A stretch of 63,813 nt of DNA, the filler included, from Reclinomonas americana ATCC 50394 (lineage: Eukaryota): assembly GCA_048213135.1 (NCBI GenBank). It is 7 parts of 7 records of this genome, joined end to end, with 100 filler letters (N's around TTAATTAATTAA, not from the genome) between each part and the next. Parts side by side here need not be neighbours in the genome. Positions count along the whole stretch, not along the records: positions 54,857 to 61,757 come from PS015629.1; 6 more parts are not named here. One strand, 5' to 3'. Of this stretch, positions 1,493-61,857 are shown in pieces. The notes beneath the pieces were generated by a model, which was not told the DNA's origin, did no database searches, and saw only the letters and a program-made list of their open reading frames with translations. The stretch's first letter is position 1, and the number at the start of each line of letters is the position of its first letter. The position numbers and the translations under genes were made by a program.

Positions 1493-1820
1493 TTTGTATG
1501 CGAAAAAAAAAAACCACTCACAAACTAACTAAACTTGCGAAAAATTCTCACGCGACGTTCCTCTTATAACGTGTTTCTGCACAGCACCTGTGTGCGTGTA
1601 AGAGTGTGCCTACAAAGTACATAAGCACGACGATCAGTTGTGAAACAGAGCACAGGCGGAAACAAGCTTGCAAGTTGCGAAGTCGATCGCGATCGATATC
1701 GTATACGTAAAAGGCTTGCTGCATTGTGTTGACCATGAGTGTGCTCTCACAGCTTGCAGTCTCCACCACGAAACGACGTCCCGACAAGACAAGGCATCAG
1801 GACGTACGTACTTGTCTTTC

Positions 1821-5250: not shown

Positions 5251-6333
5251 TCACAGACTGTGGGCGCTAGAGCAGCATCGGAACAGCACCGCCCCCGCGT
5301 CCTCGACGATGAAGCAGCGGAGCACCATCTCTGGCAGGCAGCGTGGATCATCCTCTCCCTCCTCCTCCTGTGGCAGCATCTCCTGAACAGCCTGCATGGC
5401 CAGCCGTGCACAGTCGACATCAATGTGCGCGAGGCCACTCACCGTCGACCACACGCGCACAGTTCCATTGTCTTCACAGCTGACAATGTGCTGTCCATTG
5501 GGAGTGACGGCGAGGGAGTTCACGCCCCCGTTGTGCCCCTCCAACCTTTGCACCTCCTCTCCACTGACCACCGACCATATTCGCACTGTCGCATCGTCGC
5601 CACCACTCACCACATGCCGACCGTCGGGAGTGGAGGTGACAGACCACACTCCAACAGAGTGTCCCACCAGTTGTCGCACCTCCTCTCCACTCGCCAGTGA
5701 CCACATGCGAATGGTTTCGGCGAAGCCACTGCTCACAATGTGCAGACCATCACGGGTGACGGCGACTGACCACAACATTCCTCCGCTTCCCTCGAGCCGT
5801 CGCACTTCCTCGCCTGTTGCAAGCGACCACACTCGCACGGTGCGATCCGCACTTCCACTCACAACGTGCCGACCATCGGGAGTGACAGCCACAGACGCCA
5901 CGGATTGAGCGTGTCCCTCCAACCGTCGCACCTCTTCGCCACTTGCCAATGACCACACTCGCACTGTCTTGTCATCGCCACAACTCACGATATACTGACC
6001 ATCGGGGGTGACGGCGACAGACCTCACTTCTCCAGTATGGCCCTCCAACTGTCGCACTTCTTCTCCACTTGCCAGCGACCACACCCGCACTGTTTCGTCG
6101 TCACTCCCACTCACAGCGTGCGCACCGTCGGGAGTGACGGCCACGGTGCTCACCCCACGCGTGTGTCCATCCAACAATCGCACCTCTTTGCCACTCGCCA
6201 GTGACCACACGCGCACTGTGTTATCCTCATGGCCACTCACAATGTGCTGGCCGTCGGGTGAAATGGCGACGGAGTACACTTCCCCAGGTGTTTGGATGCG
6301 CAGACTGGAGAAGAGTGGCGCAGTGGAGGCCAT
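5251..6333 (-). CDS. WD40 family copy 2 (intronless)
   Basis: MASTAPLF..., 7 WD repeats, tail ...[24 protein letters not shown]. Confidence 0.92.
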   Translation of the reverse strand: MASTAPLFSSLRIQTPGEVYSVAISPDGQHIVSGHEDNTVRVWSLASGKEVRLLDGHTRGVSTVAVTPDGAHAVSGSDDETVRVWSLASGEEVRQLEGHTGEVRSVAVTPDGQYIVSCGDDKTVRVWSLASGEEVRRLEGHAQSVASVAVTPDGRHVVSGSADRTVRVWSLATGEEVRRLEGSGGMLWSVAVTRDGLHIVSSGFAETIRMWSLASGEEVRQLVGHSVGVWSVTSTPDGRHVVSGGDDATVRIWSVVSGEEVQRLEGHNGGVNSLAVTPNGQHIVSCEDNGTVRVWSTVSGLAHIDVDCARLAMQAVQEMLPQEEEGEDDPRCLPEMVLRCFIVEDAGAVLFRCCSSAHSL

Positions 6334-6685
6334 GCTGGGTGGAGGAAGGTGAGGGCGAGAGAGAAACGAAGAGGATGCGTGGTGTGTGCTTGCGAAGTGT
6401 CTGTGTGTGCGTGTGTGTTGGGACGAAGAGACGTCATACAAAGTCCCGATCTTCGGGCTGCCATTCTCGTCTGTGCTATCGCCGCTGCACCTTCTTTCGA
6501 GCAGATTCTCCTTTACCTACTGGCTTGCATTTCACAAGAACGCTGTCCACCTTCAAAGTCATATGTCGGTAGTCACGATATCGAAGTTGACGACGCTTCA
6601 CTCTCTCCCAAGCAACAATGTACTGCACGCACACACAAGAAAAGAACTCTAGCACAGAGACTCCAACAGCACCCTCACTCAATCA

Positions 6686-7759
6686 TTACAGATGCAGGGC
6701 AGGATCAACACTGCACCGGAACAGCACCGCCTCTGCATCCTCGACGATGAAGCAGCGCAGCACCATCTCCGGCAAGCAGCGTTCCTCTTTCACTTCCTGC
6801 ACCTCCTGAACTGCCAACATGGCCAGGAGTGCTTGATCAAGTTCAATGCGAGCAAGGCCGCACGGCGTGGACCACACGCGCACTGTCTCATCAACGCTCC
6901 CACTTATAATGTGCTGGCCATCAAAGGTGATGGCGACGGAGCGCACCCATCCATTGTGCCCATCCAGTCGCCGCACTTCCTCTCCACTCGTCAATGACCA
7001 GACTCGCACTGACTCATCATAACTCCCGCTCACCACATGCTGGCCATCGCGAGTGACGGCGACGGAGCGCACGTACGAGAGACAAGTGTGTCCCTTTAGC
7101 TGTCGCACTTCTTCGCCACTGGACACAGACAACACTCGCACATTCTCGCCAACACCTCCACTCACAATGTGCTGACTGTCGGGAGTGACAGCCAGAGACC
7201 ACACAACACCAGTGCATCCGGTGAAGAGTCGCACCAGCTCTCCACTCGCCACAGACCACAGTCGCACAGTCTTATCCTCACTGCCGCTCACAACAAACTG
7301 ACCGTCGGGAGTGCCGGCAACAGATGTCACCGTGTCGGTGTGTCCCTCCAGCAGTCGCTCTACTTCTCCACTCGCCATCGACCATATTCGCACGGTGGTA
7401 TCACCTAAGCAGCCGCCACTCACAATGTGCTGGCCATCGCAAGTGACTGCCACGCATCGCACGTAGCTAGTGTGTCCCTCCAGTTGTCGCACTTCTTCTC
7501 CACTCGCCAGGGACCACACCCGCACCGTCATGTCATGGCCTCCGCTCACCACGTGCTGACCGTCGGGAGTGAAGGTGACGGAGAGCACCTTTTCTGCATG
7601 TCCCTTCAATCGTCGCACCTCCTCTCCAGTCATCAGTGACCACACGCGCATAGTGCTGTCCTCATTGCTGCTCACAGCATGCTGGCCGTCGGGAGTGACG
7701 GCGACGGCATACACTTTCCCAGGCGCCTTGATGCGCAGCCTGCAGAAGAAGAAAGGCAT
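6686..7759 (-). CDS. WD40 family copy 3 (intronless)
   Basis: MPFFFCRLRIK..., 7 WD repeats, tail STPCGLA...[23 protein letters not shown]. Confidence 0.92.
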   Translation of the reverse strand: MPFFFCRLRIKAPGKVYAVAVTPDGQHAVSSNEDSTMRVWSLMTGEEVRRLKGHAEKVLSVTFTPDGQHVVSGGHDMTVRVWSLASGEEVRQLEGHTSYVRCVAVTCDGQHIVSGGCLGDTTVRIWSMASGEVERLLEGHTDTVTSVAGTPDGQFVVSGSEDKTVRLWSVASGELVRLFTGCTGVVWSLAVTPDSQHIVSGGVGENVRVLSVSSGEEVRQLKGHTCLSYVRSVAVTRDGQHVVSGSYDESVRVWSLTSGEEVRRLDGHNGWVRSVAITFDGQHIISGSVDETVRVWSTPCGLARIELDQALLAMLAVQEVQEVKEERCLPEMVLRCFIVEDAEAVLFRCSVDPALHL

Positions 7760-8059
7760 GAAGGAGGCTATGAGGGATGGAGGATGGTGGAGGAAGAAAC
7801 GAAGGGGATGGATGGTGTGCGAGTTCTGCTTTGAAGGCGTGTGTGTGTGTGTTGTGGAGGACGAAGGGACGTCAACAAAAGTTTCCGTCCTCCTTGTCGG
7901 GTCTCTGCTGGAGTCAACACTGCTGACTTGCCAGCTTGCATTCACAGGAATGCTGTTGACGTCCACCTTCAACACCAAACGGAAGACGCTGCACCATGGC
8001 CATAGTACACTTCTGCTTCAAGAAAAAACAAAGCGACGGAACAACTCTGGCACCAAACT

Positions 8060-9136
8060 TCACAGATGCAGGGCAGGATCAGCACGGCACCGGAACAGCA
8101 CCACCTCGGCGTCCTCGACAATGAAGCAGCGCAGCACCATCTCCGGCAAGCAGCGTTCCTCTTTCGCCTCCTGCATCTCCTGAACCGCCAACATGGCCAG
8201 TCGCGCTTCATCAAGATCGACGTGAGCGAGGCCGCATGGCGTGGACCACACTCGCACGGTCTTGTCAGCACTGCCACTCACGATATGCTGACCGTCGTGG
8301 GTGACGGCGACACATGTCACCCCTTCCGTGTGTCCCTCCATCCGCCGTACTTCCTCTCCGCTCGCCAGTGACCACACTCGCACAGTCCGATCCCAGTTCC
8401 CGCTGACCACATGCTGACCGTCCGGGGTTACGGCGACCGAGCGCACCGCGCCAGTGGCTCCCTCCATCCGCCGCACTTCCTCTCCACTTGCCAGTGACCA
8501 CACTCGCACCAAGTTGTCTCCGCTTCCGCTCACACCGAATTGACCGTCGGGAGTAAACGTGACAGAGAAAACTGGATACACATCACCTTTCAGCAGCCAC
8601 ACTTCGCCGCCGGTGGACCACGACCACACTCGCAGCGTTTTGTCCCACGTGCCACCGCCGCTAGCGATGCGCTGACTGTCGGCGGCGACGGCGACAGACC
8701 CCACCCAGTCATTGTGCCTCTCCAGTCGTCGCACCTCCTCCCCTGTCGCCAGAGACCACACGCGCACTGTGTTGTCGTCACTCCCACTCACGATGAGCTC
8801 ACCGTTGGGAGTGACGGCGACAGACCGTACGGCGTCGGTGTGCCCCTCCAACCGTCGCAGTTCCTCGCCGCTCGCCAGCGACCACAAGCGCGCAGTCTTA
8901 TCATGACTCCCACTCACTACGTGCTGACCGTCGGGAGTGACGGCGACAGACGACACCCAATCTGTGTGTCCCTCCAACCGTCGCATCTCCTCCCCTTTCG
9001 ACATGGACCACACGCACACGGTGCAATCCTCGTGGCCACTCACAATGTGCTGACCATCGGGAGAGACGGCGACAGAGTGCACTCGACCAGGCGTCTGCAC
9101 ACAGAGCCTGCAGGAGAGTGGTGTGGTGGAGGCCAT
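8060..9136 (-). CDS. WD40 family copy 4 (intronless)
   Basis: MASTTPLSC..., 7 WD repeats, same conserved tail. Confidence 0.92.
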   Translation of the reverse strand: MASTTPLSCRLCVQTPGRVHSVAVSPDGQHIVSGHEDCTVCVWSMSKGEEMRRLEGHTDWVSSVAVTPDGQHVVSGSHDKTARLWSLASGEELRRLEGHTDAVRSVAVTPNGELIVSGSDDNTVRVWSLATGEEVRRLERHNDWVGSVAVAADSQRIASGGGTWDKTLRVWSWSTGGEVWLLKGDVYPVFSVTFTPDGQFGVSGSGDNLVRVWSLASGEEVRRMEGATGAVRSVAVTPDGQHVVSGNWDRTVRVWSLASGEEVRRMEGHTEGVTCVAVTHDGQHIVSGSADKTVRVWSTPCGLAHVDLDEARLAMLAVQEMQEAKEERCLPEMVLRCFIVEDAEVVLFRCRADPALHL

Positions 9137-9388
9137 GGTGGGTGGGTGGGAAGTGAGAAGCGCGTCACAACGATCGTCACAACGGTCGAAAACAACGAAG
9201 AGGACGAAGGGACAGTCAACGAAATCCCTCCCTTCTCGGCGTTGCCTCTCTCGTCTGCATTACTGCTGCTGTACTTCTTCTCGAGTCGATTCTCATTTGC
9301 CACCTTCAAAGTAGCAGTTGTGACATCTTACACTCTCGCTTCAAGGAACATCACACAGCAAAAGAACAAACCAATCCCGCTCCCAACT

Positions 9389-10300
9389 TTACAGAAGCAG
9401 GGCGGGATCAGCACGGCACCGGAACAGCACCGCCTCGGCGTCCTCGATAATGAAGCAACGCAGCACCATCTCCGGCAGGCACCGCTCCTCTTTCGCCTCC
9501 TGCATCTCCTGAACAGCGCTCATGGCCAGGCGCGCGTGATCCACGTCGATCAGCGCGAGCCCACACGGCGTCGACCACACGCACACCGTGGTATCCTCGC
9601 TCCCACTGACCACGTGCTGACCATTGGGAGTGACGGCGACAGACCACACGCAGTTGCAGTGCCCCTCCAACCTCTGCACCTCCGCACCACTCGCCATCGA
9701 CCACACTCGCACCGTCGCATCATCGCCACCACTCACCACATGTCGCCCATCAGGTGTGACCACAACAGATCGCACTCCCCCATCGTGCCCCTCCATCCGC
9801 CACACCTCCTCACCACCTCCCAGCGACCACACCCGCACCGTACCATCATTACTGCCACTGACAATGCGCTGACCGTCGGGCGTGACAACAATCGCCGTCA
9901 CCCAACTACTGTGCCCCAACATTCGTCGCACTTCCTTCCCACTCGCCAACAACCACACTCGCACCGCGTTGTCCACACCCCCAGTCACCACATGCCGCCC
10001 GTCGGGCGAAAACGCGACCACTTGCACAGCGCCGTTATGTCCGTGCAACTGTAACCGTCGCACGCCCTTGTCACTCGACTTTTCCCGCACTGCCTTGGCG
10101 TTACTGTGCAGATCGTCGGCGACTACGACCATCGGCGGCAGCAACTCATCTCCTCCTCCGCCGCCGACCTCATCTCCGCTCGCCAAAGACCACACTTGTG
10201 TGGTGCGATACTCACCGCCGCTGACAATGCGCGCACCGTCAGCTGTCACGACGACTGTGAACACGCGCTCTTGCGCTTGCAACACGCGACACACGAACAT
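9389..10300 (-). CDS. WD40 family copy 5 (intronless; 5 intact repeats plus one degenerate segment)
   Basis: First in-frame ATG gives MFVCRVLQ. The second repeat is replaced by a GGGGGDELL... segment; same tail. Confidence 0.88.
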
Positions 10301-10374
10301 CGGCAAAGCAAGGACAGTTGCAGGCTCGCGCGCCGTGAACTGTCCTCTGTCCACTTTCACATCACGCTTTCACA

Positions 10375-15329: not shown

Positions 15330-15467
15330 TAGGAGGAGGAGGAGGTACGTACTCGTCTCGTCCGTCCGTCCGTCTTCTTCCTTCCTTCCTTCCCTTCCGT
15401 CGTCGTACGACGTACGTACTCCTNNNNNNNNNNNNNNNNNNNNNNNNNNNNNNNNNNNNNNNNNNNN

Positions 15468-15479
15468 TTAATTAATTAA
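15468..15479. other. Artificial contig linker TTAATTAATTAA (also at 27533, 31951, 49427, 54801, 61802)
   Basis: Identical 12-mer with stops in all six frames, always embedded in N-runs. Confidence 0.97.
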
Positions 15480-15523
15480 NNNNNNNNNNNNNNNNNNNNN
15501 NNNNNNNNNNNNNNNNNNNNNNN

Positions 15524-18857: not shown

Positions 18858-19776
18858 GAGGCAAGGAAACTGGGAGCACCACGCCCGCCTACAGTCTAAA
18901 TTTCGGAGAGCAAATGTGCACGTGATGGCACCACCACAGAGGCACGACTTCAAGAGCGCATGAAATATCAACAGCGGTTCTGCCTTCCTCCACGCAGAGA
19001 CGTGCAACAGCCAACTCATTCATTCGCCAGCAAACACGGCGACACACACGCGGCTGAAAGCGTACACAACATCAATCAAAAAAAACGAACCCCGTTATCA
19101 CTCGTCACTCGAGTGCACCTGCGCAACACCAAAACACACATACACACACACACATGCACGCACGACAACGTCAGCGCACAAGTTCCTCTCTCTCTCTCTC
19201 TCTCAAGCAGAACGCAACATCCGGCATCTCATTCATGGCGACGACAGCAGTAGTGCCACCGCACGAGACAGACTCGTGCGAGGCCTCACCGACAGGGTCG
19301 GCGCCGATGATGGCGGCACACGGAAGGCTCTCCAAGCCCTCTGCGAGTGAGAGACAGAGAGACAGAGAGTGAGTGACACACTGACAGACACATTCTCCTC
19401 TCGCGGTCTCACATTCTCACACACGCATACACATGGATACATCTCACTCTCTCACACTCACACCCTTGCACACACACACACGCGCACGCACACTCATACA
19501 CTCACACACTCACACACACACACACACTCAGCCGCTCTCCTGCCTTCCCTTTCCTCTCTCTCTCCACTCTCTCTCTCTCTGTCTGACTCTTTCTTCTCAC
19601 GCACCATTCGGACGCGAATGCGAAGAACCCATCTCTCTCACACACGTGCTCACACTGCTTCACTCGCAACCACAGAACAACGAAGGAGCTCTCTCGCAAG
19701 AAAGAGAATCGAAAACACAATCAGCGTGTCCCACTGTCGCCTTCGTGTCCCCCTCCCTCTCTCTCCCCTTTCCTCC

Positions 19777-20901
19777 ATGGCATCCACCGCTCCTCCCCCT
19801 CCCTTCTTCTGCAAAGTGATGCAAGAACCTGCGAGAGTCTTCACAGTCGCCATCACTCCCGATTCGCGCCACTTTGTGAGTGCAGGTGTGAACAGCGTGG
19901 TGCGTGTGTGGTCACTGGCGAGTGGCAAGGAGGTGCGCCAGTTGCGAGGACACACCGATGACGTGCGGTCTGTCACCGTCACTCCCGACGGTCAGCACGT
20001 TGTCAGTGCGAGTGGTGACGCGTCTGTGCGCGTGTGGTCGCTGGCGAGTGGCGAAGAGGTGCGACGCATGGAGGGGCACACAGGGAGGGTGAACTCTGTC
20101 GCCGTCTCTCCCGATGGTCTGCTCGTGGCGAGTGGGGGTTGGGACAAGACAGTGCGACTGTGGTCTCTGGTGAGTGGCGGCGAAGTGCGACGGCTGGAGG
20201 GACACGATGATCAGGCGTGGTCTGTCGTCTTTGCTCCCGATGGCCAGCACGTGCTCAGTGCGAGTCTGGACTGGACTGTGCGTGCGTGGTCTGTGGCGAG
20301 TGGGGAGGAAGTGCGGCGGTTCGTCAAGGACGGTGATGGTGATTCGGTGTACTCTGTGGCTGTGTCGCCAGACGGGCAGTGTGTGTTGAGTGGGAGCTCG
20401 GACTGCACAGTGCGAGTGTGGTCCATGGCGACTGGCGCCACCCTTCATCGCTTGGAGAGACACGACGGATGGGTGTTTTCCGTCGCCTTCACTTTCGATG
20501 CTCGGTACATGGTGAGTGGGAGCGGAGGCAGCACTGTACGACTGTGGTCTGCCGTGACTGGGGAGGAGATTTGCCAGCTGCAGGGGCACGTTAGCGCGGT
20601 GTGGTCGGTCGCCGCTGCACCCTGCGGCCAGCACATTGTGAGTGGCGGCGAGGACAGGACGGTGCGAGTGTGGTCGACGCCGTGCGGACTGGCCCGCTTC
20701 GATCTCGACGAAGCACGGCAGGCCATGCGGGCGGTTCAGGAGATGCTGGAGGAGGAGGAGGAGGAGGAGGAGGAGGAGGAGGAGGAGGAGGAGGAGCATG
20801 TTCCACGCTGCCTGCCAGAGATAGTGCTGCGGTGCTTCATCGTCGAGGATGCCGAGGCAGTCCTCTTCCGGTGCCGCACCGATACCACACTGTGCCTCTA
20901 G
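19777..20901 (+). CDS. WD40 family copy 6 (intronless; poly-Glu expansion in tail)
   Basis: MASTAPPPPFFCK..., 7 WD repeats, STPCGLARFDL...(E)n [26 protein letters not shown]. Confidence 0.92.
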   Translation: MASTAPPPPFFCKVMQEPARVFTVAITPDSRHFVSAGVNSVVRVWSLASGKEVRQLRGHTDDVRSVTVTPDGQHVVSASGDASVRVWSLASGEEVRRMEGHTGRVNSVAVSPDGLLVASGGWDKTVRLWSLVSGGEVRRLEGHDDQAWSVVFAPDGQHVLSASLDWTVRAWSVASGEEVRRFVKDGDGDSVYSVAVSPDGQCVLSGSSDCTVRVWSMATGATLHRLERHDGWVFSVAFTFDARYMVSGSGGSTVRLWSAVTGEEICQLQGHVSAVWSVAAAPCGQHIVSGGEDRTVRVWSTPCGLARFDLDEARQAMRAVQEMLEEEEEEEEEEEEEEEEHVPRCLPEIVLRCFIVEDAEAVLFRCRTDTTLCL

Positions 20902-21223
20902 CGTGGTCTCTGGCCTCTTGAAGTCGTTCTGTCGGGAAATGTATGCGTCGCGCGACGCACTGCGGGTTGCACTTGCACAATTACTCCACAGAAGAATCCT
21001 ACACGATGCTACTCGCTATTGACTCTCCCTTCGTGTCTATCTCTCACTCTCTCTGTCTGTCTGCCGTTCTGTCTGTTTACTCTGTCTGTGCATCTCGACT
21101 TCCAGTCATCAAAGGCGACACTTACACAGGTTAGCTTCGTCGTATTTCATTCGATATCGATATCGTGATGGATGATTGACGCCGACACATCTTCTCACCC
21201 CCTCTCTTTCCACCGCCTCCGCC

Positions 21224-22642
21224 ATGGGCGCCTGCTGCTGCGCACCGCGCGACGACCACCCTCTCTCACATCAAAAGCCACACCACGAACAGCGGTACCT
21301 CACGCAATCACCAGTCACCACCGAGGCCACGACTCCATCAACCGCCGATGTCAACGATGATGATGAGTACGATGATGACGATGAGAGGAGACACCGACGT
21401 CGGCGACGACGACGAGCACCACCCACATTGCCTCCAGAGGTCGCCCGCTTGACAGGTTGCAGCGGTCGCGTGCACGCAGTCGCTGTGTCGCCGCATGTCG
21501 CCGGATTGCCACAGGTAATCTGCAGAGCGAGAGAGTGCTCATTCTGTCTCCCTTCCCCACACACGCTCTCTCTCTCCCTCTCTCTGCAGCTGGTGGCCAC
21601 GGCATGCGAGAACCAAACCGTGGAGATCTTCAACGCCGACACGGCCACGTTCCTCGGCAAACGCGAGGGACACAACAGCGAGGTGCTCTCCGTGGCCTTC
21701 TCGCCCTCCGATCCCACCATGCTGGTGAGTGGAGGCGGCGGTCGCCGCTACCTCAACTACGAGGTCATTCTGTGGGATCTGTCGGATATGGTGGCCAGTC
21801 GGCGGCGCGTCCGCATACAGCCGCGTAGTCGCTTGCCGCCCATCAACCCTCTCCGCTGGCGATCGCGGAGACTGACGCACAGCACCGATTCGCTGGTTGT
21901 CTCACGTGATCAGCGGCTGGTGGTGGCGGCCGTGCGCGATGGCACTGTGCGCGTGTGGCAAGCGGCTTCCGGCAAGTTCCTGCGTGTGCTGGTCGGACAT
22001 ACCGCACCAGTGCGTTCGGTGGCGACGGTGCTTGTTGGTCAGGAGGAGTTGCTGGTGAGCGGATCCGACGATGGCACGATTCGGTGGTGGCGCATGGACA
22101 CTGGCGAGTGTCTGCGGTTCGTGCAGACCGACAGTGGCGTGCGGTCCGTGGCCGTGTCGGGCGATGATCGTTTGGTGGCGACGTCGCACGCCAATGTGGA
22201 GTGGCTCGGACGCAGTTCACCGTCGTTGCGACGCGCGTCTCACCCGATCCGCCTGTGGTCGTCGCTGTCGGTGTTCGAAGACGACGATGGACCGCAGCTG
22301 GTGCGCTCGTTTGGTGGTGGCGGTGGCGACGGATTCGCGATTGTCGATGCGTCGTTTTGTGGCGACGACGCTCAGTTTGTGCTGAGTAGTGCGCTCGGTT
22401 CGTGCACGTGTCGCGCTTGATCGAGGCTGCTTGCCGTCGACTCACTTCGGTTGCTCGCAGACTGCACCGTGTGCATCTGGCAGCGCAGCAATGAGAGCAA
22501 CGAGTGCGTGGCCGTGGATGTGGTCGGGCCGGGTCCTCCGGCGCGCAGCTTGCACGATGGGCGCATCGTGTGCGGCTGCTACGAGGGAGTGTTGGCGGTG
22601 ATGGCACCGGGTGAGTTGTGGCAACCAGCGCATAGGGGATAG
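21224..22642 (+). CDS. WD40 protein unrelated to the family above, with N-terminal MGACCC (myristoylation/palmitoylation-like), 2 introns
   Basis: Divergent WD repeats, no conserved tail; GT-AG introns near 21515 and 22398. Confidence 0.75.
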
Positions 22643-49620: not shown

Positions 49621-50832
49621 CTTGTTGATCGGGTTGCCGGAGCGGGCAGCGTGCTGGATGGTGCGGATCTCGCTGATGGCCCAGTCGACGCTCGCGTAGA
49701 AGTCGGCATCACTGCGAGGCGATGGTGAGTCGAAGAAGGCAGAGCGCTGGCAAAGGGAGGGAGAGACGCAACAGATCCATCGTGTCGATGGAGATCTCGG
49801 TGGCGCCGCCAAAGCCGTCGCAGATGCGCACGTTGTAGCCGTAGCCAGTGAACAGTGCCACCAGCTCCTCGTTGCTCATGGCTGCGTGAAGCGGAGGAAT
49901 GAGGGGAAGGGAGGAGAGGGGAAAGAAAGGGCATGTGAAGAAACTCACCGCCGAAAATCGTGGGCTCGGCAATCTTGTACCCACTGCAATCATACAACAT
50001 AATGTGAGTAACGTGAGAGAGACGAAAAGAAGGATTGCACACGAGCCGCAACTTGACGTGCAGAATGGGCAGCACGGCACCACTCTCAGCCGGGTCGAGC
50101 CACTTGGTCGAGTGCCACGCGGCGGCAGTCGGGCCGGTCTCGGCCTCGCCGTCGCCCACCAGGCACGGGACGATCAGGTCGGGATCTAGGAGGTAGGAAG
50201 GGTGGTGAGGATGAGGGGGGAAGGGGAGAGGGGGGGGGAAAGGGGGAGGGAAAGGGGAAAGAGGGAAAAGGGAAAGAGGGAAGGGGGAAGAGAAGGAAAG
50301 GGAGAGGGAAAAGGGAAAGAGGGAAAGGGGAAGAGAAGGAAAGGGAGAGGGAAAGGGGGAGGGAGAGGGGGAGACAGAGGGGGAGAGAGGAGGGGAGCAG
50401 GGAAGAGAGGGACGAAGAGGAAGAGGAAGAGAAATGTGACAGAAACGAGTGACAATGGGAAAGGACTGAGCAGACGGTATTTCGGAGGAGGGTAGAGAGC
50501 GCACGATCCCACTGACAACGCAACTGTCCATCACGGCACCATAGGCCACAGCCAGCGCGTAGCCGAGCTCGCCGCCCTCGTGAATGCTGCCGGGCGTCTG
50601 TGTGCGAATGCACGAGATGAGCCACACCACATTACGCACTGCCAAACGCAAGTAGACACACACAAACCTCGGCATTGATGTGCGACGGGAAGCCGCCAGG
50701 CCACGAGAACTGGCGGATCAAGTGCGCCGCGCCCTCCAGCGTCAGCACGTTGCTGGGGTAGAAGGTGCCCAGGCTGCCCTCGGCAAAGAGGTTCGACAGC
50801 ATGGCGGGTGCGCCGTGGCCGGGACCGACGAC
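49621..50832 (-). CDS. xfp: Phosphoketolase, middle exons (segment inverted between gaps)
   Basis: GPGHGAPA...[27 protein letters not shown]...GDGEAETGP...LHVNGYKI (TPP-binding region). Confidence 0.95.
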
Positions 50833-50868
50833 CTACACGAGGAGAAGGGAGAGAGAGTGAGGGAAAGG

Positions 50869-50902
<34 letters not shown>

Positions 50903-50989
50903 CGAGAGACGAAGAAACAGAGAGGAACAAATGAAGAATGAGAGCTNNNNNNNNNNNNNNNNNNNNCTCTCTTTCTTTTCTTTCTTCTC

Positions 50990-51026
<37 letters not shown>

Positions 51027-51146
51027 GTCCCCTCGCTCTCTCTTTCTCTTCCCCTCTCTCCTCTCTTCCCCTCTCTTCCCCCTCCCTCCCCTCCCCCTTC
51101 CCTTTCCCTTTCCCTTTTCCGAACTGACCCTTTGTGTCTTCGGCAG

Positions 51147-53553
51147 CCTCGCTTCCCGATGATCGTCCTCCGCAGCCCGAAGGGCTGGACCGGCGTGCGC
51201 ACTCTGGACGGCGAGCCCGTCGAGGGCTCCTTCCGCAGCCACCAGGTGCCGTGCTCGGACACATACACCAACCCCGCCCACTTGCGCGCCATTGAGGACT
51301 GGCTGCGCAGCTACCGCGTTGCGTTTCCTTTTTGCTTGACACGCGTCCTTTCCCATCAATCGCACTCACCACAATGTTGCTTCAGCCCGAGGAGCTGTTC
51401 CGCGTGGAGGACGGCAAGTGGCTGTTGAAGGAGTTCCTGGAGGACTTTTGCCCAAAGGGCAACCTGCGCATGGGCTGCAATCGGTCAGTTCTTTTTGTGC
51501 AATCCTCCCTGTTCCACACACGACGCTCACCTTTTCGTTGTATTCTCGCTGCAGCCACACGTGCTACTGGCGCCCCGACGGCTCCCACGTCGACCCGTGC
51601 GCTCACCTCGATGTGCGTCTTGCTTGTCTTTTTTTAATCCTTGCATCCTCCCGATTGCTGAGTGTCTACACAGCTGCCGAGCCTGTTCGAGTTCGCCACC
51701 CACGTCAATGTCGCCCAGCGTGACTCCACTGGTGTGTCGTCGGCCATTGACAGCTCGACGCGCCAGCTGGGCAAGTTCCTGCGCGAGGTCGTGTCGCGCA
51801 ACCCGCGCACGTTCCGCGTGTTCTCGCCCGACGAGTTCGTCTCCAACAAGCTCAACTACATTTTCGATGTGACGCACCGCAACTTCCAGTGGCCGATTGG
51901 ACGCGGTGACTACCACATTGAGAAGCAGAACGGAGGTCGCGTGCTGGAGATCCTCTCCGAGCACACGTGCCAGGGCTGGATGCAGGGTTACTCGCTGACC
52001 GGTCGCTACGGCATGCTGCCGAGCTACGAGGCCTTTTTGGGTGCGTATTGTGCTTTTTCACTTGTTTTTTTTGCATCCTCTCCCTCACCGACCATCATGT
52101 GCAGGCATCATCGCCACCATGATGGACCAGTACGCCAAGTTCATCAAGATGGCGACGCCGCTCGAGTGTTGCGTGGCAGTTGCCGAGTGTGTGGAAGTGG
52201 GGGAAGAGTTTGCTTACCCCTCGTGATGTAAACAGGGCGCCCGCGCGTGCCGAGCCTGATTTACCTGGAGACCAGCACTTTGTGGCGCCAGGAGCACAAT
52301 GGCTTCAGCCACCAGAACCCGAGCTTCATCAACACCGTGCTCAACAAGAAGGTTTGTTTCGTCCCTCGTTGATGTTCTTGGCGGCGAGTGCTGACGATTT
52401 TGATGCAGGCGCACTTTGCTCGCGTGTACCTGCCGCCTGATGCCAACACTCTGGTCGCCACCTACCACCACGTGCTGCGCTCGACCAACAAGTGCTGCCT
52501 GATTGTGGCACCCAAGTACGAGATGCCGCAGTGGTTCACGATGGAGGTCAGTCGCTTGTCTATAGTTGAACAAAGCAGCGCGTCTCACCAACTCCAATAG
52601 GAAGCACTGGCTCACTGCCGCGCCGGCGCCGGCGTGTTCAAGTGGTGCAGCACCGACGATGGCGAGAACCCCGACGTGGTGCTCTGCGGTATCGGTGGCG
52701 AGGTGTGTGACTGGAGAGGACTACTTGAGTGACAAAATGGGTTGCTGACTTTTTCTGTGTGCAGGTGATGGTGGAGACGGTGATGGCCGCTCGCATCCTC
52801 TTCAAGAAGCTGCCGAAGCTGCGCATCCGCGTGGTCAACGTCACCGATCTCTGTTGCGTGGATTCTTCAACCGTTGTTCTTCTCACAATCACGATTTGCT
52901 CACTTTCCTATTCCCCAATGCAGTGGTGCTGTCAACCGACCACCAGCACCCGCATGGCCTGTGCGACGCTCAGTTTGCGTCGCTCTTCACTGCGGACAAG
53001 CCGGTGATCATCAACTTCCACGGCTACCCGTCAGCCGTCAAGGAGGTGAGTGACACCAACATTGCACAGCTTCTTTCCAATGTCGTATCACTCACCAACT
53101 TTTCACTGCAGTTGCTGTTCGATCGCCCGAACACGGCTCGCTTTACCATCCACGGCTACATGGAGGAGGGTGAGTGTGACCCCGCCCACGCATCCCTTGT
53201 CTATACACACATCAGCACTCACTCTCATTTCGCCCAACAGGAACCACCACCACGCCGTTCGACATGCACGTGCTGAACCAGACCGATCGCTTCACGCTTG
53301 CCCGCGAGGCGGTTGAGTTCGGTGTTGCGGGCGGCAACAAGGCCATTGAGGCCGACGCCCTGGGCCTGCTCTCGCACTTTGCCTACCTGCTGCGCGATCA
53401 CCACCAGTTTCGTCGCAGTATTCAGACAGTCTTCGTATCGTTGTTGCTCATCTCACCTCCCCCCACAGCTACGTGCGCCAGTACGGCAAGGACGCCGACC
53501 ACATCCTGCTGTATCCGGATGCGCCGTCGACGGAGGGCTCCTCGTCAACATGA
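51147..53553 (+). CDS. xfp: Phosphoketolase, 3' exons
   Basis: [13 protein letters not shown]...FRSHQVP...[11 protein letters not shown]...[15 protein letters not shown]...[13 protein letters not shown]...FHGYP...[14 protein letters not shown]. Confidence 0.96.
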
Positions 53554-54131: not shown

Positions 54132-55500
54132 CTGTGGGAGGGGAAGGGATTAGAGGGGAGAGGATGGGAAGGGAAGGGATTGGAGGGGAAGGGATAAGAG
54201 GGGAAGGGAGGGAAGGGAGGGAAGGGAGGGAGGGAAGGGAGGGAGGGAGGGAAGGGAGGGAAGAGACGGGAAGGAGGGAAGGGAGGGAACGGAAGGGAAC
54301 TGTGAGATGGGAAGGAGAGGGACAAGGAGGGAGGAAAGGAAGGGAGGGAAGGGAGGGCAAAGGGAGAGAGGAAGTGAGGGATGAGAGGGAACGGCGAGAC
54401 GGGAAGGAGGGATGAAAGGGAAGGGAGGGAATGGAGGGAAGGGAGAGAGGGAGGGAGGGAGAGAGGGAAGGGAGGGGAAGGGAGGGGAAGGGAGACAGAG
54501 AAAGAGGAAGAGGCAGAAGAAGAGGAAGAGACAGTGAGAGAGGCACAGGAAGAGACAGAGGCAGAGGAAGAGACAGAGGTTGAGACACAGCGACAGACAC
54601 AGAGGCAGAGGAAGAGGAAGAGACAGAAGCAGAGGAAGAGACAGAGGCAGAGAAAGAGGAAGAGACAGAAACAGAGAGGAGAAGACAGAACGAACACACA
54701 CACACACACACACAAAGAGAGAGAGAGAGAGGAAGGTAGTTCGCCCCTCAGCGACGNNNNNNNNNNNNNNNNNNNNNNNNNNNNNNNNNNNNNNNNNNNN
54801 TTAATTAATTAANNNNNNNNNNNNNNNNNNNNNNNNNNNNNNNNNNNNNNNNNNNNGGGTAAAAGTCGACAAACTGCACACAAGAGAGAAAGAGAGAGCA
54901 AGTGAGATATTCACAGATTCCTTCTCGAAATCATGTCTCATGTGATGTGTGCATGAGAGAGAGAGAGAGAAACAGTGAGGGAGTGAGTGTGAGAGTTGTG
55001 TCTCTCTTTGGTGTTTGTTTGTTTGTTTGTTTGTTGGGCATCACCATCGCGCACACACAGACACACACACATACAAACCATGCAATGTGCTGTCGAGGAT
55101 GTGCGGCAGAGGCAGTGGCCTGCGCCCACACTCCGCTAAAGATGCGAGTCACGTGGCCGCGCAAGCGCGACGCAGTGAACATTTGTGTGTAGTCTGTGTT
55201 TGTGACAAATGAATTTTCCCGATGCGAAGTTGTGTGCTGAGTCGCGTACCAGTCAGTGTTCACCGTGTGGAGGAGAGACATGTGATGTTTGTGGACTGTA
55301 CAGCACTGCTTGTTGCAGAGAAAACGAGCATGAGCAACTTCGCAATTTGACTTCGCGCGCGATCGCGCAACTGCAAGCTGACCCTGAAAGAAGAAGTAGA
55401 CGCAAGTGCTCAGCAGAAAAGAGGCAACTGCAGGAAGCATGCATAACCCGTGCACGTCCTGGGGGTTCAGAACCCACCGAACAAACCTCGCTGCGACTTC

Positions 55501-56604
55501 ATGGCCTCCTCTTCTGCCCCTGATCCACCACTCTTCGAGTTCTCCAGAGTCCGCATGAAGGCACCTGGGTGCGTGTACTCTGTCGCCGTCACTCCCGACG
55601 GGCAGTACATTGTCAGCGGTGGTGTTGGCAATGTTGTGTGCGTGTGGTCGCTGGCGAATGGAGAGTGCGTGTGGAAGCTGAGAGGGCACAAGGCGGCGGT
55701 GATGTCTGTCGCCGTTGCTCGTGATGATGACGGGCAGCTGTTTGTTGTCAGTGGAGGCTACGACTTGACTGTTCGCGTGTGGTCGCTGGCGAGTGGGGAG
55801 GAGGTGCGACGCTTGGAGGGACACACTCGCTACGTGCGGTCGGTGGCGGTCACTCCCGACGGTCAGCACGTTGTGAGTGGTGGAGGCCGTGGGGACGGCA
55901 CTGTGCGAGTGTGGTCCACGGCGAGTGGAGAGGAATTGCGACGCATCGAAGGGCGCGAACAAGATGAAGTGTTTTCAATCGTCGTCACTCCCGATGCTCA
56001 GCACTTTATCACTGCGACTGGAGACACCGACGTGGTACTGTGGTCGTTGGCGAGTGTCAAGCAGGTGCGACGGTTTGAGAGCCTTCGGACAGTGCGTTAT
56101 GTTGCGATTACTCCCTGTGGTCAGCACGTTGTCGGAGGTGGCGACCGTTCAGTGTCGGTGTGGTCCATGGTGAGCGGCAAGGAGGCTCGGCGACTCCATG
56201 TCTCGGTGAACTGTGTCGCCGTCACAAACGATGGCCAGCACGTCGTGATTGGTGGGGACCGGTACAACGCTTTGCGAGTGTGGTCTGTCGCGAGTGGAGA
56301 AGACATGCAATGGTTGCCGGGGCACAGTGACGCAGTGCAATCTGTCGCCATCACGTACGACGGCGAGCACGTGGTGAGTGCGGGCAGCGATGCGACGGCG
56401 CGTGTGAGGTCGACGGTACGCGGCCTTGCCGGCATCGACCTTGATCAGGCTCGCCTGGCCATGCGCGCTGTTCAGGAGATGCAGGAAGCCGATGAGCAGA
56501 TGGATCCACGCTGCCTGCCTGAAATTGTGCTGCGCTGCTTCATCGTCGAGGATGCCGAGGTGGTGCTCTTCCGATGCCGTGTTGGCCCCGACCGGCACCT
56601 GTAG
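55501..56604 (+). CDS. WD40 family copy 8 (intronless)
   Basis: MASSSAPDPPLF..., 7 WD repeats, tail PRCLPEIVLRCFIVEDAEVVLFRC. Confidence 0.92.
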   Translation: MASSSAPDPPLFEFSRVRMKAPGCVYSVAVTPDGQYIVSGGVGNVVCVWSLANGECVWKLRGHKAAVMSVAVARDDDGQLFVVSGGYDLTVRVWSLASGEEVRRLEGHTRYVRSVAVTPDGQHVVSGGGRGDGTVRVWSTASGEELRRIEGREQDEVFSIVVTPDAQHFITATGDTDVVLWSLASVKQVRRFESLRTVRYVAITPCGQHVVGGGDRSVSVWSMVSGKEARRLHVSVNCVAVTNDGQHVVIGGDRYNALRVWSVASGEDMQWLPGHSDAVQSVAITYDGEHVVSAGSDATARVRSTVRGLAGIDLDQARLAMRAVQEMQEADEQMDPRCLPEIVLRCFIVEDAEVVLFRCRVGPDRHL

Positions 56605-56883
56605 GGCGGTGCGAGTTGTCACTTGTTTGGGTGTCGGGACTTCCCGAGAGAGTGAAGTCAATTGCAATGCAGTAAAGTCCATCGTTTACCAGTGCCCGCA
56701 GCACCTGGCGAAGACCTTCTTTGATGTTGATGGAATGTGACAGAGAAAGAACACGCAATACGAGAGAAGCCACAATCGGGACCCCGCGAACGCCAATGTC
56801 CCACACCTTCTGTTGTCCTTGCCTCCCACATCAACATTCGCATCCACAAGCGCAGCCCATCAGCCACCCTCTTCTTCACTTCC

Positions 56884-57960
56884 ATGACCTCTCCACTCTT
56901 CTGCCGACTGCTCATTCAGGCGCCTGAGCAAGTGTACGCAGTCGCCATCACCCCCGAAGGCCAGCACATTGTGGGAAGCACCGACAACAATACGCTGTGT
57001 GTATGGTCTCTGGTGAGTGGGGAAGAAGTGCGACGATTACAGGGGCATTCCAAAGGGGTGGTCTCTGTCGCCGTCACTCCAGACGGCCAGCATGTAGTGA
57101 CTGGCAGTCGTGATCATACAGTACGAGTGTGGTCGCTGGTGAGCGGGGAGGAAGTGCGACGACAAGAGGAGCACTCAGGAGTGGTGTTCGCTGTTGCGGT
57201 TACTCCCGACGGTCGGCACTTTGTAAGCGGCGGCGGCTTCGGTGACAGCACAGTGCGCGTGTGGTCGCTGGCGAGCGGGGAAGAGATGCTATGCTTCAAT
57301 GGACACACACAAGGAGTGACTTCCGTTGCCATCACCCCCGACAGTCAGCGTGTTGTGAGTGGAGGTAATGACTGTACTGTGCGAGTGTGGTCACTGGAGA
57401 GTGGCGAAGTCGTGCAACAGTTGGAGGGGCACGCTGACTGGGTGAATGCTGTTGTCGTCACACCCGACGGTCAGCATGTTGTGAGCAGTGGAGACGGCGG
57501 CGCAGTGAGAGTGTGGTCTCTGGCAAGTGGCGAAGAGGTGCGGCGGCTGGAGGGGCACATTGGTCCGGTGCAATCTGCTGCCGTCACCCCCGACGGCGAG
57601 TACGTGGTGAGTGGGGGCGACGACGGCACGGTGCGGCTGTGGTCATTCGCGAGCGGAGAAGAAGTGCAACGGTTGGAGGGACACACTGACACGGTATGGT
57701 CTGTCGCCATCGCTCCCAGTGGTCAGCACGTGGTGAGAGGGAGCGGTGATAAGACGGTGCGCGTGTGGTCCACTCCTTGTGGCCTCGCCCTGAATGAAGT
57801 TGAACAAGCACGCCTGGCCATGCACGCTGTTCGGGAGGCGCAAGAGGATGGGGATGAGGTGGTGGTGGATTCGCGCTGCCTGCCAGAGATGGTGCTGCGC
57901 TGCTTCATTGTCGAGGATGCCGAGGCAGTGCTCTTCCGAAGTCGCACAGATCGACTCTAG
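56884..57960 (+). CDS. WD40 family copy 9 (intronless)
   Basis: MTSPLFCRLLIQ..., 7 WD repeats, tail [24 protein letters not shown]. Confidence 0.92.
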   Translation: MTSPLFCRLLIQAPEQVYAVAITPEGQHIVGSTDNNTLCVWSLVSGEEVRRLQGHSKGVVSVAVTPDGQHVVTGSRDHTVRVWSLVSGEEVRRQEEHSGVVFAVAVTPDGRHFVSGGGFGDSTVRVWSLASGEEMLCFNGHTQGVTSVAITPDSQRVVSGGNDCTVRVWSLESGEVVQQLEGHADWVNAVVVTPDGQHVVSSGDGGAVRVWSLASGEEVRRLEGHIGPVQSAAVTPDGEYVVSGGDDGTVRLWSFASGEEVQRLEGHTDTVWSVAIAPSGQHVVRGSGDKTVRVWSTPCGLALNEVEQARLAMHAVREAQEDGDEVVVDSRCLPEMVLRCFIVEDAEAVLFRSRTDRL

Positions 57961-58533: not shown

Positions 58534-58554
58534 ATGGCAGAGCAGCAGGTGATG

Positions 58555-58590
<36 letters not shown>

Positions 58591-58822
58591 TTTCCCAAAG
58601 CTGCTCTCCTCTCTCATCTTCGTCTCACCAATTTGATATCCGCAGGATTGGGCTCTCGGTGATGAGTGTGCCATCGATATGTCGGCTGCGGGCTACCTCG
58701 GAGGCGGCGCTGTTGCGTTCACGCCGTCCCTCTTGCTGTCGCTCACACGTGCTTGTTGCCACTGACCGCTAACTGTGTGTGCGTCTCTTTTTCTGTCTCT
58801 CTCTCACACTCACACACACGCG

Positions 58823-58856
<34 letters not shown>

Positions 58857-61386
58857 GCGCATTCCTTGCCATGACAGTGTTGCGTTTGTTGCATTCGTGT
58901 TCGGAAAAATGTTGCAATGGGACAACTGATTCTCCCTCTCACTCTCTCTCTCTCTCTCTCAGTCGGGCAGTGCCGTCGCGCCAGGTTTGTGTCTCTCTCT
59001 GCCTCTCGCTGACTTCGTCTCGTTCGCTCGCTCGCTCACTCACTCATACGCTGTTGCTAGACTGGAAGTAGCGGTCAAGGTATGCGCTAGAGAACAGCAC
59101 CATCGCGGTTGCCTACTCTCATCCCTCTCTCTCTCTCTGCACCGCAGCGCGTGTCTCTCCACTTGGAGTTCGTATTTCTTTCCCTCCCTCCCTTGCATTC
59201 TGCAGAGCGAGTTGACTTTCGTGTGCAGGCATCACATGTCCAAGTTCTACGTCCAACGGTGCTTCATGCTCCCCGCCACCCGCCGATCTTGCTTCGCACT
59301 TACCGCCTCTGCAGTGTGCTCCGCGAGCTTCGCCTGCTGTCGCGCTTGTTCCACCCCAACGTTTCGCCCCCCATTCGTTGGCTTCCCCTCATCGTCGTCG
59401 TCTCTCACTCGCGATGCAGGTCATGCGACTGCTCGATGTCAAACCGCCGGGTCCCCGCTTCGAGGACTTCCACGAGGTCTACATTGTGACGGAGGTTGTC
59501 GACCGCGGCTCGTTGGAGGCGTTGCGTGTTGCATTGTTTTGCTTGCAGCGTAGCAGCTCGCAGCATGGCTCACGTCGCCACCACACAGTGCGATGGCTCC
59601 GCAGTTCCTCGGTTCGAATACCGACGTGAATCACGATGATGAGATCAACCGGCGTTTGATCATGTACGACATTGCAAAGGCGCTCAAGTACCTTGGCGAC
59701 TCGAAAATCTTGCACCGCGACCTGTTGCGTCTCGCGAGATCTTTGCAGTATTATGACGCAGGCGCTGATCCTTAGTGTGCTGCAGCGCGCCCAAGAACAT
59801 TCTCCTGTTCTCGCGAACAGACGGCAGGCTGGGAGCCAAGGTAAGTGTCGATGCGGCCACCACGGATGTGACGAAAGGGCGGCGGCTGACGTGCATGTCT
59901 GCCAGGTGTGCGACCTCGGCTTGTCGCGCATGATGCTCGAGTTCCCGGGAGAAGGCAACAAACACACGGAGCTGGTGCAGACCCTCACGTATCGTTGCGT
60001 TGGAGAGTGTGTGTGAGTGGAGGACCTCGTTGTTTGCGTGTGCAAGGGTAGTAGAAGAAGAGAGCAAGATGCACGGATCTCTGTTGCCTGTATTTTGTTA
60101 TCTGTTGTGATCAACCTCTCACCATCGCTCGTCCCAACAGGTGCTCCAGAAGTTCTCGTGCGCGCGCCATACGATTACCGAGATATGTGGGGAATTCACC
60201 TGTGTGTCAACTCTTCATTTAAATTAATTTTGCCTTGCTGACATTCGCTTCGTCCTCCCAGCACCCGACCTGTGGAGCTACGGTCTGTGAGTGTGCGCGC
60301 ACGTGTTGTCGATTGCTGCGCTCTGATTTCCTCCTTGACTCCACACAGGCTGCATTCTTGCCCGCATGTACAACTTCAGAAATCTTGTTGTGAGTCGAGA
60401 AATGTGGTGCCTGTCGTGCGCATCTAGTTTTTCACTGATTTTATCTGCCGCAGCGAAAGTCAGGCTGCGGTCCGTGCTGGCAGCGTCTTGAAAGGGAGAG
60501 TGATGGTTGCTTACCAGTGATTGTTTGTCGCGACTGCATGCGCAGATTACGAAGTGTACGAGGCGGTCTTTCATGGGCAGACAGGTCTGTCTCTCTGTTG
60601 CCTGCATCGATTCATGTACGCACTCACTGATTGAGTTGACCATGCGCAGAGACGGCGCAGTTGACTCAAATTATTCACGCGATCGGCTTGGATGAGCGGG
60701 TCAAGGCATGGGTTCTTGAGAACGGTCAGAGTCCCATGAAGGATTGGCTCAATCGCCAACCCGTCCGCGAGTCTCCTGGCTGGCGATCGGTGTTGCCTGA
60801 TGGACCGGATGACGGTAGGCGTTGCGCAGATGTGTGCACCACGCACACATGGATATATCGCTCACGCACGCGTTTCAATTTTTCGTTAACGTTGTCTCAC
60901 AGCGCTGGATCTCATCGACAGGATTTTGCAGGTACGCTCGTTGTTCAACGGGCAGTGACTTTCTCACACTGGTACACTCAACGGTGCACTGCAGTTCATC
61001 CCAAACGATCGGAATCGACGCCTGCAGAGAGCGGAAGACGAGGACAAACTGTTGGATGGAGTTCTGAGCCACCCATACTTTGATCCCATCCGCCAGTTTG
61101 TTGTTGACTCGCACGACGTTGCGTAGTTTATTGTTTCCGGGTGCGTGCATTAGTGGCGGAAGCTTCTCACGGTGTGACCTCGCAGGACGCTGTGCATTTG
61201 CCGGTCGGTCTCGACGAAGAATTCGCATTTGAAGATGTAATTCACGAGCTCAACGTCGACGATTTACGCGGTACGTGGTACGTGTGTCGGTGAAGATCGC
61301 CGTGACAACGTGATAATGACAACTGCGCAGTGGCCATGTGGGATACTGTTCGCAAGTTCCATCCGGAGCTGCCGGCAGCTCGTTAA
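58534..61386 (+). CDS. Divergent MAPK-like (CMGC) protein kinase with about 21 introns
   Basis: Spliced: LGGGAFG...VAVKR...RVLRELRLLSRLFHPNV...HRDLAPKNIL...CDLGLSR...TELVQTLTYRAPE...DLWSYGCIL...HPYF...FAFE...FHPE. Confidence 0.85.
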
Positions 61387-61553
61387 CAGCTGCCTCTCGA
61401 CTCTTCCTCATGCACATGCCCGCGCCACAATTGGTGGGCCTTCTTATGGCACCGCCCCGCGCAATGTCGGGCAGAATACAAAATTAAATCCTGTCAATTC
61501 TGTCGGATTTCATGCTTTCTCCAACGCCATTGGCGATTGATTTCCACACAACT

Positions 61554-61757
61554 ATGAGCGAGGACGACCACGGCAAGAAGATCTGCTGCTACTTTGTCCG
61601 CGGCAACTGCCGGCATGGCGACGCCTGCACGAACGCGCACACATACGAGAGCTGGAGGGCGGCGATTCCGTGGGGCGGTAAGGGCCGGTTTAAGGCCGCG
61701 GTGGCCGCGCAACGGGGGAACCTCGAGGACGCCGGTCTCGAGGGTTTTGCCGACATT
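61554..61757 (+). CDS. CCCH zinc-finger protein, 5' fragment
   Basis: ICCYFVRGNCRHGDACTNAH (C-x7/8-C-x5-C-x3-H); truncated by gap. Confidence 0.8.
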
Positions 61758-61857
61758 NNNNNNNNNNNNNNNNNNNNNNNNNNNNNNNNNNNNNNNNNNN
61801 NTTAATTAATTAANNNNNNNNNNNNNNNNNNNNNNNNNNNNNNNNNNNNNNNNNNNN

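Follow-up and report, generated by a model that had tools for sequence, protein, structure and literature searches.

A single thymine at position 58878 forms, with a probability of about 0.6, a one-nucleotide exon that is included constitutively in transcripts of a CMGC-like protein kinase gene in Reclinomonas americana ATCC 50394 (GenBank assembly GCA_048213135.1), and this is the best-supported reading of the locus. The gene lies in the stretch of 63,813 nucleotides that was analysed here (the window), which belongs to an intron-rich eukaryote and is a draft scaffold with a G+C content of about 55% and 20 runs of N, several of which flank TTAATTAATTAA linkers. A gap of 251 nucleotides (58712–58962) separates the two exons that encode the start of the glycine loop and its continuation, with T 58878 as the border between an intron of 166 nucleotides and one of 84. 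The one-base exon had been proposed in an earlier note on this DNA. Splice signals and reading frame leave it as the best-supported interpretation, but in-frame routes without a microexon had been overlooked. The features around the gap are as follows.

58534..58548, plus strand: first kinase exon, consisting of ATG and four further codons, with a GTGATG donor behind it; it shares the frame of exon 2
58549..58645, plus strand: intron 1, 97 nucleotides, GT to CAG
58646..58711, plus strand: exon 2, 66 nucleotides, 22 codons, ending in phase 0; its last residues, G-G-G-A, form the start of the glycine loop
58712..58877, plus strand: upstream flanking intron, 166 nucleotides, GTTGCGT donor at 58712–58718 and CAG acceptor at 58875–58877
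58878..58878, plus strand: candidate one-base exon, a T that opens the Phe codon (T-TC) of the glycine loop
58879..58962, plus strand: downstream flanking intron, 84 nucleotides, GTTGCGT donor, CT tract and CAG acceptor at 58960–58962
58963..58984, plus strand: exon 3, 22 nucleotides, TC GGG CAG TGC CGT CGC GCC AG, requiring one preceding base for frame
58985..59060, plus strand: intron 3, 76 nucleotides, GTTTGTGT donor, CTGAC at 59009, TAG acceptor
59061..59079, plus strand: exon 4, 19 nucleotides, bearing the V-A-V-K lysine motif (59068–59079)
59080..61386, plus strand: remaining kinase gene with 15–16 more exons and the stop codon TAA at 61384–61386

All letters on which the proposal was based were found in place, with the second GTTGCGT occupying 58879–58885, and the exon edges were also as described, GGC GGC GCT ending at 58711 and TC GGG CAG beginning at 58963. 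Translation confirmed that inclusion of the T gives L-G-G-G-A-F-G in frame with V-A-V-K. It had further been stated that skipping the T leads to a stop, and indeed a direct join of 58711 to 58963, with 58985–59060 removed, stops 12 codons on. The single T has an AG directly before it and a GT directly after it, as expected of a one-nucleotide spliceosomal exon, and the only AG dinucleotides within 58712–58962 are those of the two acceptors (58876 and 58961), leaving both sub-introns free of an internal AG.

For scoring of splice sites, position weight matrices (PWMs) for donors and acceptors were built from 19 homology-validated introns of a phosphoketolase gene in the same window, the donors of which score 4.8–10.9. 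The top three donors in the region 58640–59090 are 58985 (9.2), 58879 (8.4) and 58712 (8.1), the latter two opening the downstream and the upstream flanking intron, respectively. The acceptor of the upstream intron scores 1.8 and is preceded by a (CT)n tract at about 58825–58857 and by branch-like CTGAC/CTAAC/CTCAC motifs starting at 58762, 58769, 58803 and 58809, which are 65–112 nucleotides away from it; the pyrimidine tract and the distal CTGAC/CTAAC motifs recorded earlier are thus present. The downstream intron contains the branch-like motifs CTGAT (58926) and CTCAC (58938), and its acceptor at 58962 has the highest acceptor score of the region (14.3) and is the first AG past its pyrimidine tract. 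Both flanking introns fit the organism's own intron rules with regard to donor, branch-like motif, pyrimidine tract and length, the upstream acceptor being weak; the other motif-supported acceptors of the kinase gene range from -5.0 to 10.5.

Scaled to one strand of the 251-nucleotide gap, the expectation for AG-N-GTTGCGT is about 0.0016. A search of the window for further sites with AG, one to five nucleotides and a strong donor gave seven, and none but 58878 combines GTTGCGT with a plausible acceptor, so the arrangement does not recur in the window. When the two sub-introns were compared with each other, the alignment was limited to the common CT repeat and gave no sign of a duplication or an introner family. 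A scan of the window against Rfam at gathering thresholds yielded no match.

The need for one additional base follows from the size of exon 3. Its downstream border is set by the donor at 58985 (its 8-mer GTTTGTGT is identical to one that opens a validated phosphoketolase intron) together with the TAG acceptor at 59060, and its upstream border by the acceptor at 58962, which is the best and the first AG, so that the exon is fixed at 22 nucleotides and one further base is needed between exon 2 and V-A-V-K. Use of the first well-placed AG is the norm in a reference set of 27 introns (19 homology-validated and 8 supported by kinase motifs): an AG within 12 nucleotides upstream of the used acceptor was found in 2 of the 27, in both cases 10–11 nucleotides upstream, whereas in 12 of the 27 an AG lying up to 12 nucleotides downstream goes unused. 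On this basis, 58962 is preferred to 58970 and 59060 to 59068. Intron 3 has a C+T content of 72%, compared with 32–67% in exons, and is free of stops in one frame, for which reason its retention has to be counted among the rival routes.

The ways of splicing exon 2 to the lysine codon were enumerated exhaustively, with a maximum of three introns and a minimum intron length of 40 nucleotides, and those that were in frame and stop-free were counted. With GT-AG introns there are 334 such routes, of which six give a G-x-G-x-x-G loop and three the aromatic form G-x-G-x-[FY]-G; all three use the one-nucleotide exon. If GC donors are also admitted, the number rises to 5847 routes, 24 of them with an aromatic loop. 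Every one of these 24 begins an exon at 58878 and hence uses the acceptor at 58877, 12 with the one-nucleotide exon and 12 with an equivalent version of four nucleotides that ends at a GC donor, which is implausible. T 58878 is therefore required for G-x-G-x-[FY]-G, and in-frame routes with poorer loops also exist. Since the gene is otherwise intact and carries all catalytic motifs, a working glycine loop is to be expected.

The enumeration also showed that skipping of the T, which had been regarded as the sole alternative, is not the only one, as several in-frame GT-AG routes lack the microexon. The kinase might be spliced in an ordinary way with another acceptor, another donor or a retained intron and have a non-canonical or shortened glycine loop, which is considered unlikely. 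Five forms of this can be distinguished. Route a removes 58712–58970 and 58985–59060, with loss of F-G-Q, and depends on the following acceptor.

58968..58970, plus strand: rival CAG acceptor, 8 nucleotides downstream of 58962, PWM score 9.4, in frame without the T

Route b removes 58712–58962 and either 58985–59068 or 58985–59071 and gives G-G-G-A-S-G followed by just 8–9 residues to the lysine. Route c removes 58712–58962 and 58989–59060 and likewise gives G-G-G-A-S-G, the lysine lying 18 residues past the first loop glycine. In route d, 58712–58962 is removed and 58985–59060 retained, and in route e, 58712–58877 is removed and 58879–58962 retained.

All five routes are in frame and stop-free without any exotic exon, and b, c and d keep a G-x-G-x-x-G string. 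The acceptor score of 9.4 at 58970 speaks for route a, but routes a and b have to bypass a CAG or TAG that follows a pyrimidine tract at normal branch distance, and a bypass at such close range is seen in only 2 of the 27 reference introns, where the AG passed over lies 10–11 nucleotides upstream of the acceptor. It can also be put forward for these rivals that the same kinase gene uses a weaker donor beside a stronger one (60283/60287). The donor at 58989, on which route c depends, scores 2.9, which is below the validated range, and is situated four nucleotides from the best donor of the region. Routes d and e would add 25–28 residues of translated CT repeat, and the coding log-odds of 58963–59079 is 0.01 per codon in comparison with 0.11–0.65 in kinase exons. 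None of the five supplies the aromatic loop residue. Moreover, they leave a perfect AG-T-GTTGCGT idle within an intron, a coincidence with the above expectation of about 0.0016, and make it a further coincidence that the T and the next eight bases spell F-G-Q in register. The microexon-free rivals are thus less likely than the one-base exon.

If T 58878 is an exon, the gap would consist of two ordinary short spliceosomal introns, 58712–58877 and 58879–58962, each equipped with a GTTGCGT donor, a pyrimidine tract and an acceptor at the first AG. The 3' and 5' splice sites on either side of the T are one base apart and overlap, which precludes joint binding of both and from which sequential removal is inferred. 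The ordered or nested splicing put forward earlier is thus reasonable; the two introns would leave in turn, and either order is possible. With the upstream intron removed first, the donor would be rebuilt (...GCT-T/GTTGCGT) in the manner of a recursive-splicing ratchet point, and with the downstream intron removed first, the acceptor (...CAG/T-TC) would be left intact. The T that is kept would open the Phe codon and thereby complete G-G-G-A-F-G and preserve the reading frame past V-A-V-K as far as the stop codon. The expected messenger RNA (mRNA) would carry the additional T where ...GGCGGCGCT meets TCGGGCAG; both its presence there and the stepwise splicing are predictions from the genomic sequence. 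Taken together, a kinase one-base exon released by two-step, recursive-like splicing between GTTGCGT donors, which would belong to an undescribed and possibly shifted-register class, is the account that is favoured on balance.

GTTGCGT had been called the characteristic donor of this DNA, and homology-mapped introns as well as its enrichment uphold this. Spliced alignment of the phosphoketolase gene to a homologous protein (P0003) gave 19 GT-AG introns, 18 of 54–79 nucleotides and one of 339 nucleotides, of which five start with GTTGCGT and one with GTTGCGG. Six introns of the kinase exon model also start with GTTGCGT. There are 22 copies of the heptamer in the window, where 9.8 ± 3.5 are expected, and none of 100 shuffles reached 22. 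Of those on the sense strand of the phosphoketolase and kinase genes, 12 in number, every one is at an inferred exon end. Occurrences of the heptamer include those listed here.

49149, 49772 (minus strand), 50524 (minus strand), 51318, 52168, 52853, 58712, 58879, 59521, 59724, 59994, 61118: examples of GTTGCGT

Based on these findings, GTTGCGT is a genuine donor in this organism. As a further observation, it is the commonest donor heptamer, its class accounts for about one quarter to one third of donors, and the related GTTTCG is also present. GTTGCGT resembles the other common donor, GTGCGT, moved by one base, and this likeness suggests a shifted U1 register. Non-canonical U1 registers, either shifted or bulged, are known at 5' splice sites (PMC4856993). 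The likeness to these, as far as they are described there, lies in GTTGCGT being a displaced GTGCGT, and the difference is that it forms a large donor class here and no rare exception. A full-text string search for GTTGCG, GUUGCG, GTTGCGT and GUUGCGU as splice donors found no paper. GTTGCGT would receive a poor score from standard splice models, which are trained on GTRAGT, and for the annotation of this genome the donor may matter more than the candidate exon.

The kinase gene spans 58534–61386 on the plus strand and has about 20 short exons, as read from the sequence and the exon model. With T 58878 included, the model runs from ATG at 58534, a start codon that is assigned by inference, to TAA at 61384–61386 across 19 or 20 GT-AG introns, for a protein of 409 or 425 amino acids. 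Downstream of the lysine, its translation contains in this order L-R-E, HRDLAPKN, D-L-G, A-P-E, D-L-W-S-Y-G-C and a CMGC-like C-terminal H-P-Y-F. The catalytic motifs of kinases thus follow each other in the proper order (Gly loop, VAxK, alpha-C Glu, HRDxxxxN, DFG-like, APE), the matching of motif strings to kinase subdomains following textbook knowledge. When exons were submitted singly to Pfam, exon 59590–59721 matched Pkinase with 16 bits (E 0.008), which is under the cutoff of 31.7, and no match was obtained for five other single kinase exons or for the direct-join frame 58963–59079. A PDB sequence search with exon 59590–59721 gave weak best matches including MAP kinases (E 0.05–0.08), and another kinase exon found no match in the same database.

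Two other places in the gene model deserve mention. D-L-W-S-Y-G-C-I-L is preserved only via the donor GTCTGT at 60283 (PWM score 5.4) and not via the adjacent GTGAGT at 60287 (8.8), and the two donors may be a tandem alternative pair. The segment 60390–60545 allows two in-frame models, either a 52-nucleotide exon (60454–60505) with a GTTGCT donor, adding 17 residues, or a single intron of 152 nucleotides with its donor at 60394.

A different explanation for the frame at exons 2 and 3 is that the assembly lacks one T at either exon boundary, in which case a single intron of 250 nucleotides would suffice, or that the gene is a recently frameshifted pseudogene. Errors are conceivable in a draft scaffold with 20 runs of N and an inverted contig within the phosphoketolase gene, and the region is rich in CT microsatellite. 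However, about 800 aligned phosphoketolase codons are without a frame break, which suggests good base-level accuracy of the assembly, and many open reading frames (ORFs) of 400 amino acids with WD40 repeats are intact. The exon 2 and exon 3 junctions have no homopolymer runs, and beyond these exons the kinase gene reads unbroken through 19–20 introns and keeps all catalytic motifs. A missing T would also leave the internal AG-T-GTTGCGT as a coincidence, and this explanation is considered improbable.

Equally improbable is a variant in which T 58878 is truly an exon but subject to regulated skipping, so that a frameshifted, short-lived mRNA would arise and act as the on/off switch for the kinase that had been suggested earlier. 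The stop 12 codons after the direct join and the weak-looking acceptor at 58877, which would permit some skipping, are compatible with such a switch. On the other hand, of the two published one-base exons, that of APC11 is described as constitutive (PMC4674806) and that of CYP621A as correctly spliced under several growth conditions (PMC12940212).

Several points weigh against T 58878 as an exon. The support comes from a single sequence. Searches in a protein collection restricted to longer proteins yielded no orthologue for exon 60652–60813 and, with E up to 10, none for exon 59590–59721. An exhaustive search of representatives with the latter exon gave one match, P0122, a distant multi-kinase protein. 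A metagenome scan with a kinase exon of 54 amino acids had no match, and a second one with the read-through frame 59554–59772 gave seven loci, which each match one exon at most and are thus not orthologues. The acceptor at 58877 scores only 1.8, though this is inside the range of the kinase gene, and the branch-like motif nearest to it is 65 nucleotides upstream, which is unusual beside the introns of 54–79 nucleotides in the neighbouring gene. Use of the weaker donor at 60283 over 60287 implies that PWM strength is not decisive for site choice, and the in-frame microexon-free routes from the enumeration belong here as well. The count of AGNGTTGCGT, two in the window compared with 0.83 expected on both strands, is not significant, as 19 of 100 shuffles reached two; the second copy, at 52165, falls at the normal end of an exon. 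Codon usage does not separate the frames either (log-odds of the 22-nucleotide exon -1.1 in the microexon frame versus -0.2 bits). Finally, with the T included, the lysine follows 17 residues after the first loop glycine. In textbook kinases, this distance is about 19–26 residues, and the spacing of 17 may therefore be short for a kinase and the N-lobe model incomplete. Independently of this weighing, P0122 was considered as a guide for spliced alignment of the N-terminal part and rejected as too distant.

Exons of one nucleotide were called very rarely documented, and this holds: the published nuclear cases that were found are APC11 and CYP621A. In Arabidopsis thaliana APC11, a single-nucleotide exon, A333, was proven by cDNA sequencing and by constructs with base substitutions and deletions, and its authors propose intron definition with removal of one intron after the other (Guo and Liu 2015, PMC4674806). 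Like T 58878, it is one base flanked by AG and GT that is needed for the frame, and it sits in a stretch that earlier annotation treated as one intron. The APC11 gap measures 422 nucleotides with the base at position 333, whereas the gap described here has 251 nucleotides, GTTGCGT as both donors and a catalytic motif of a kinase at stake. APC11 was shown by cDNA, whereas T 58878 is known here from the genome only.

The second case is a one-nucleotide exon (AG/G/GT) of the P450 gene CYP621A in Fusarium, which was supported by 20–24 orthologues, an intronless relative and 18 reads from the Sequence Read Archive and which its authors call the second example (Nelson and Syed 2026, PMC12940212). 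There, too, one base bordered on each side by a consensus splice site resolved an over-long intron and a phase mismatch in a conserved motif. The G of CYP621A suits both splice-site consensi, whereas here the base is T and a single sequence is at hand.

Zero-nucleotide recursive splicing has been described in Drosophila, where a 3' and a 5' site adjoin each other and the first splice regenerates the 5' site for renewed use (bioRxiv 10.1101/006163). At such ratchet points, as reported, no base is kept and the introns are very long, whereas one base would be kept here between introns of 166 and 84 nucleotides; by analogy, a ratchet-like rebuilding of the donor is likely to be the mechanics at T 58878. 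A single-base-pair exon was also reported for placozoan mitochondrial cox1, together with trans-splicing cox1 introns (PMC5436844). It shares the exon of one base with the kinase and differs in being part of an organelle gene. The introns of placozoan cox1 are reportedly self-splicing organelle introns and not spliceosomal ones.

If true, T 58878 would be the third nuclear one-base exon and the first outside plants and fungi. It would also be the first one to supply part of a catalytic motif, namely the aromatic residue of the ATP-binding loop, and a single base would determine whether the kinase has any ATP-binding loop. The 251-nucleotide gap with its two identical strong donors would be a compact natural substrate for studying how, and in what order, the spliceosome deals with a 3' and a 5' site one base apart. 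To our knowledge, gene finders are unable to place one-base exons, and the kinase would consequently be called frameshifted or loop-damaged, which makes the locus an annotation trap.

The phosphoketolase gene occupies 48807–53520 with its 19 mapped introns. Its database homologues have 57–58% identity, and the best relatives span 57–70%; the closest are transcript-like records, followed by cyanobacteria, chlamydiae and agaric fungi. The contig 49483–50946, between two N linkers, is inverted relative to the phosphoketolase exons on either side, and this orientation marks it as a scaffolding error. Contigs are joined by 44 N, 12 bases and 44 N at the following positions.

15424–15523, 27489–27588, 31907–32006, 49383–49482, 54757–54856, 61758–61857: contig joins

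At the last of these joins, where the bases were read, the 12 bases are TTAATTAATTAA, which contain a stop in all six frames.

About 10 long and apparently intronless ORFs with near-identical WD40 repeats were also observed, an expanded family that is clustered around the intron-rich genes.

1644–2876, plus strand: WD40 ORF
5251–6516, minus strand: WD40 ORF
6686–8017, minus strand: WD40 ORF
8060–9259, minus strand: WD40 ORF
9389–10369, minus strand: WD40 ORF
19351–20901, plus strand: WD40 ORF
21176–22420, plus strand: WD40 ORF
46307–47599, plus strand: WD40 ORF
55447–56604, plus strand: WD40 ORF
56731–57960, plus strand: WD40 ORF

A similar C-terminal tail is shared by two of them, 5254–6516 and 56731–57960, the ends having been read for these two. 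Just downstream of the kinase gene, at 61553–61757, lies an ORF that opens with a zinc-finger pattern of the type C-x8-C-x5-C-x3-H and is ended by an N linker.

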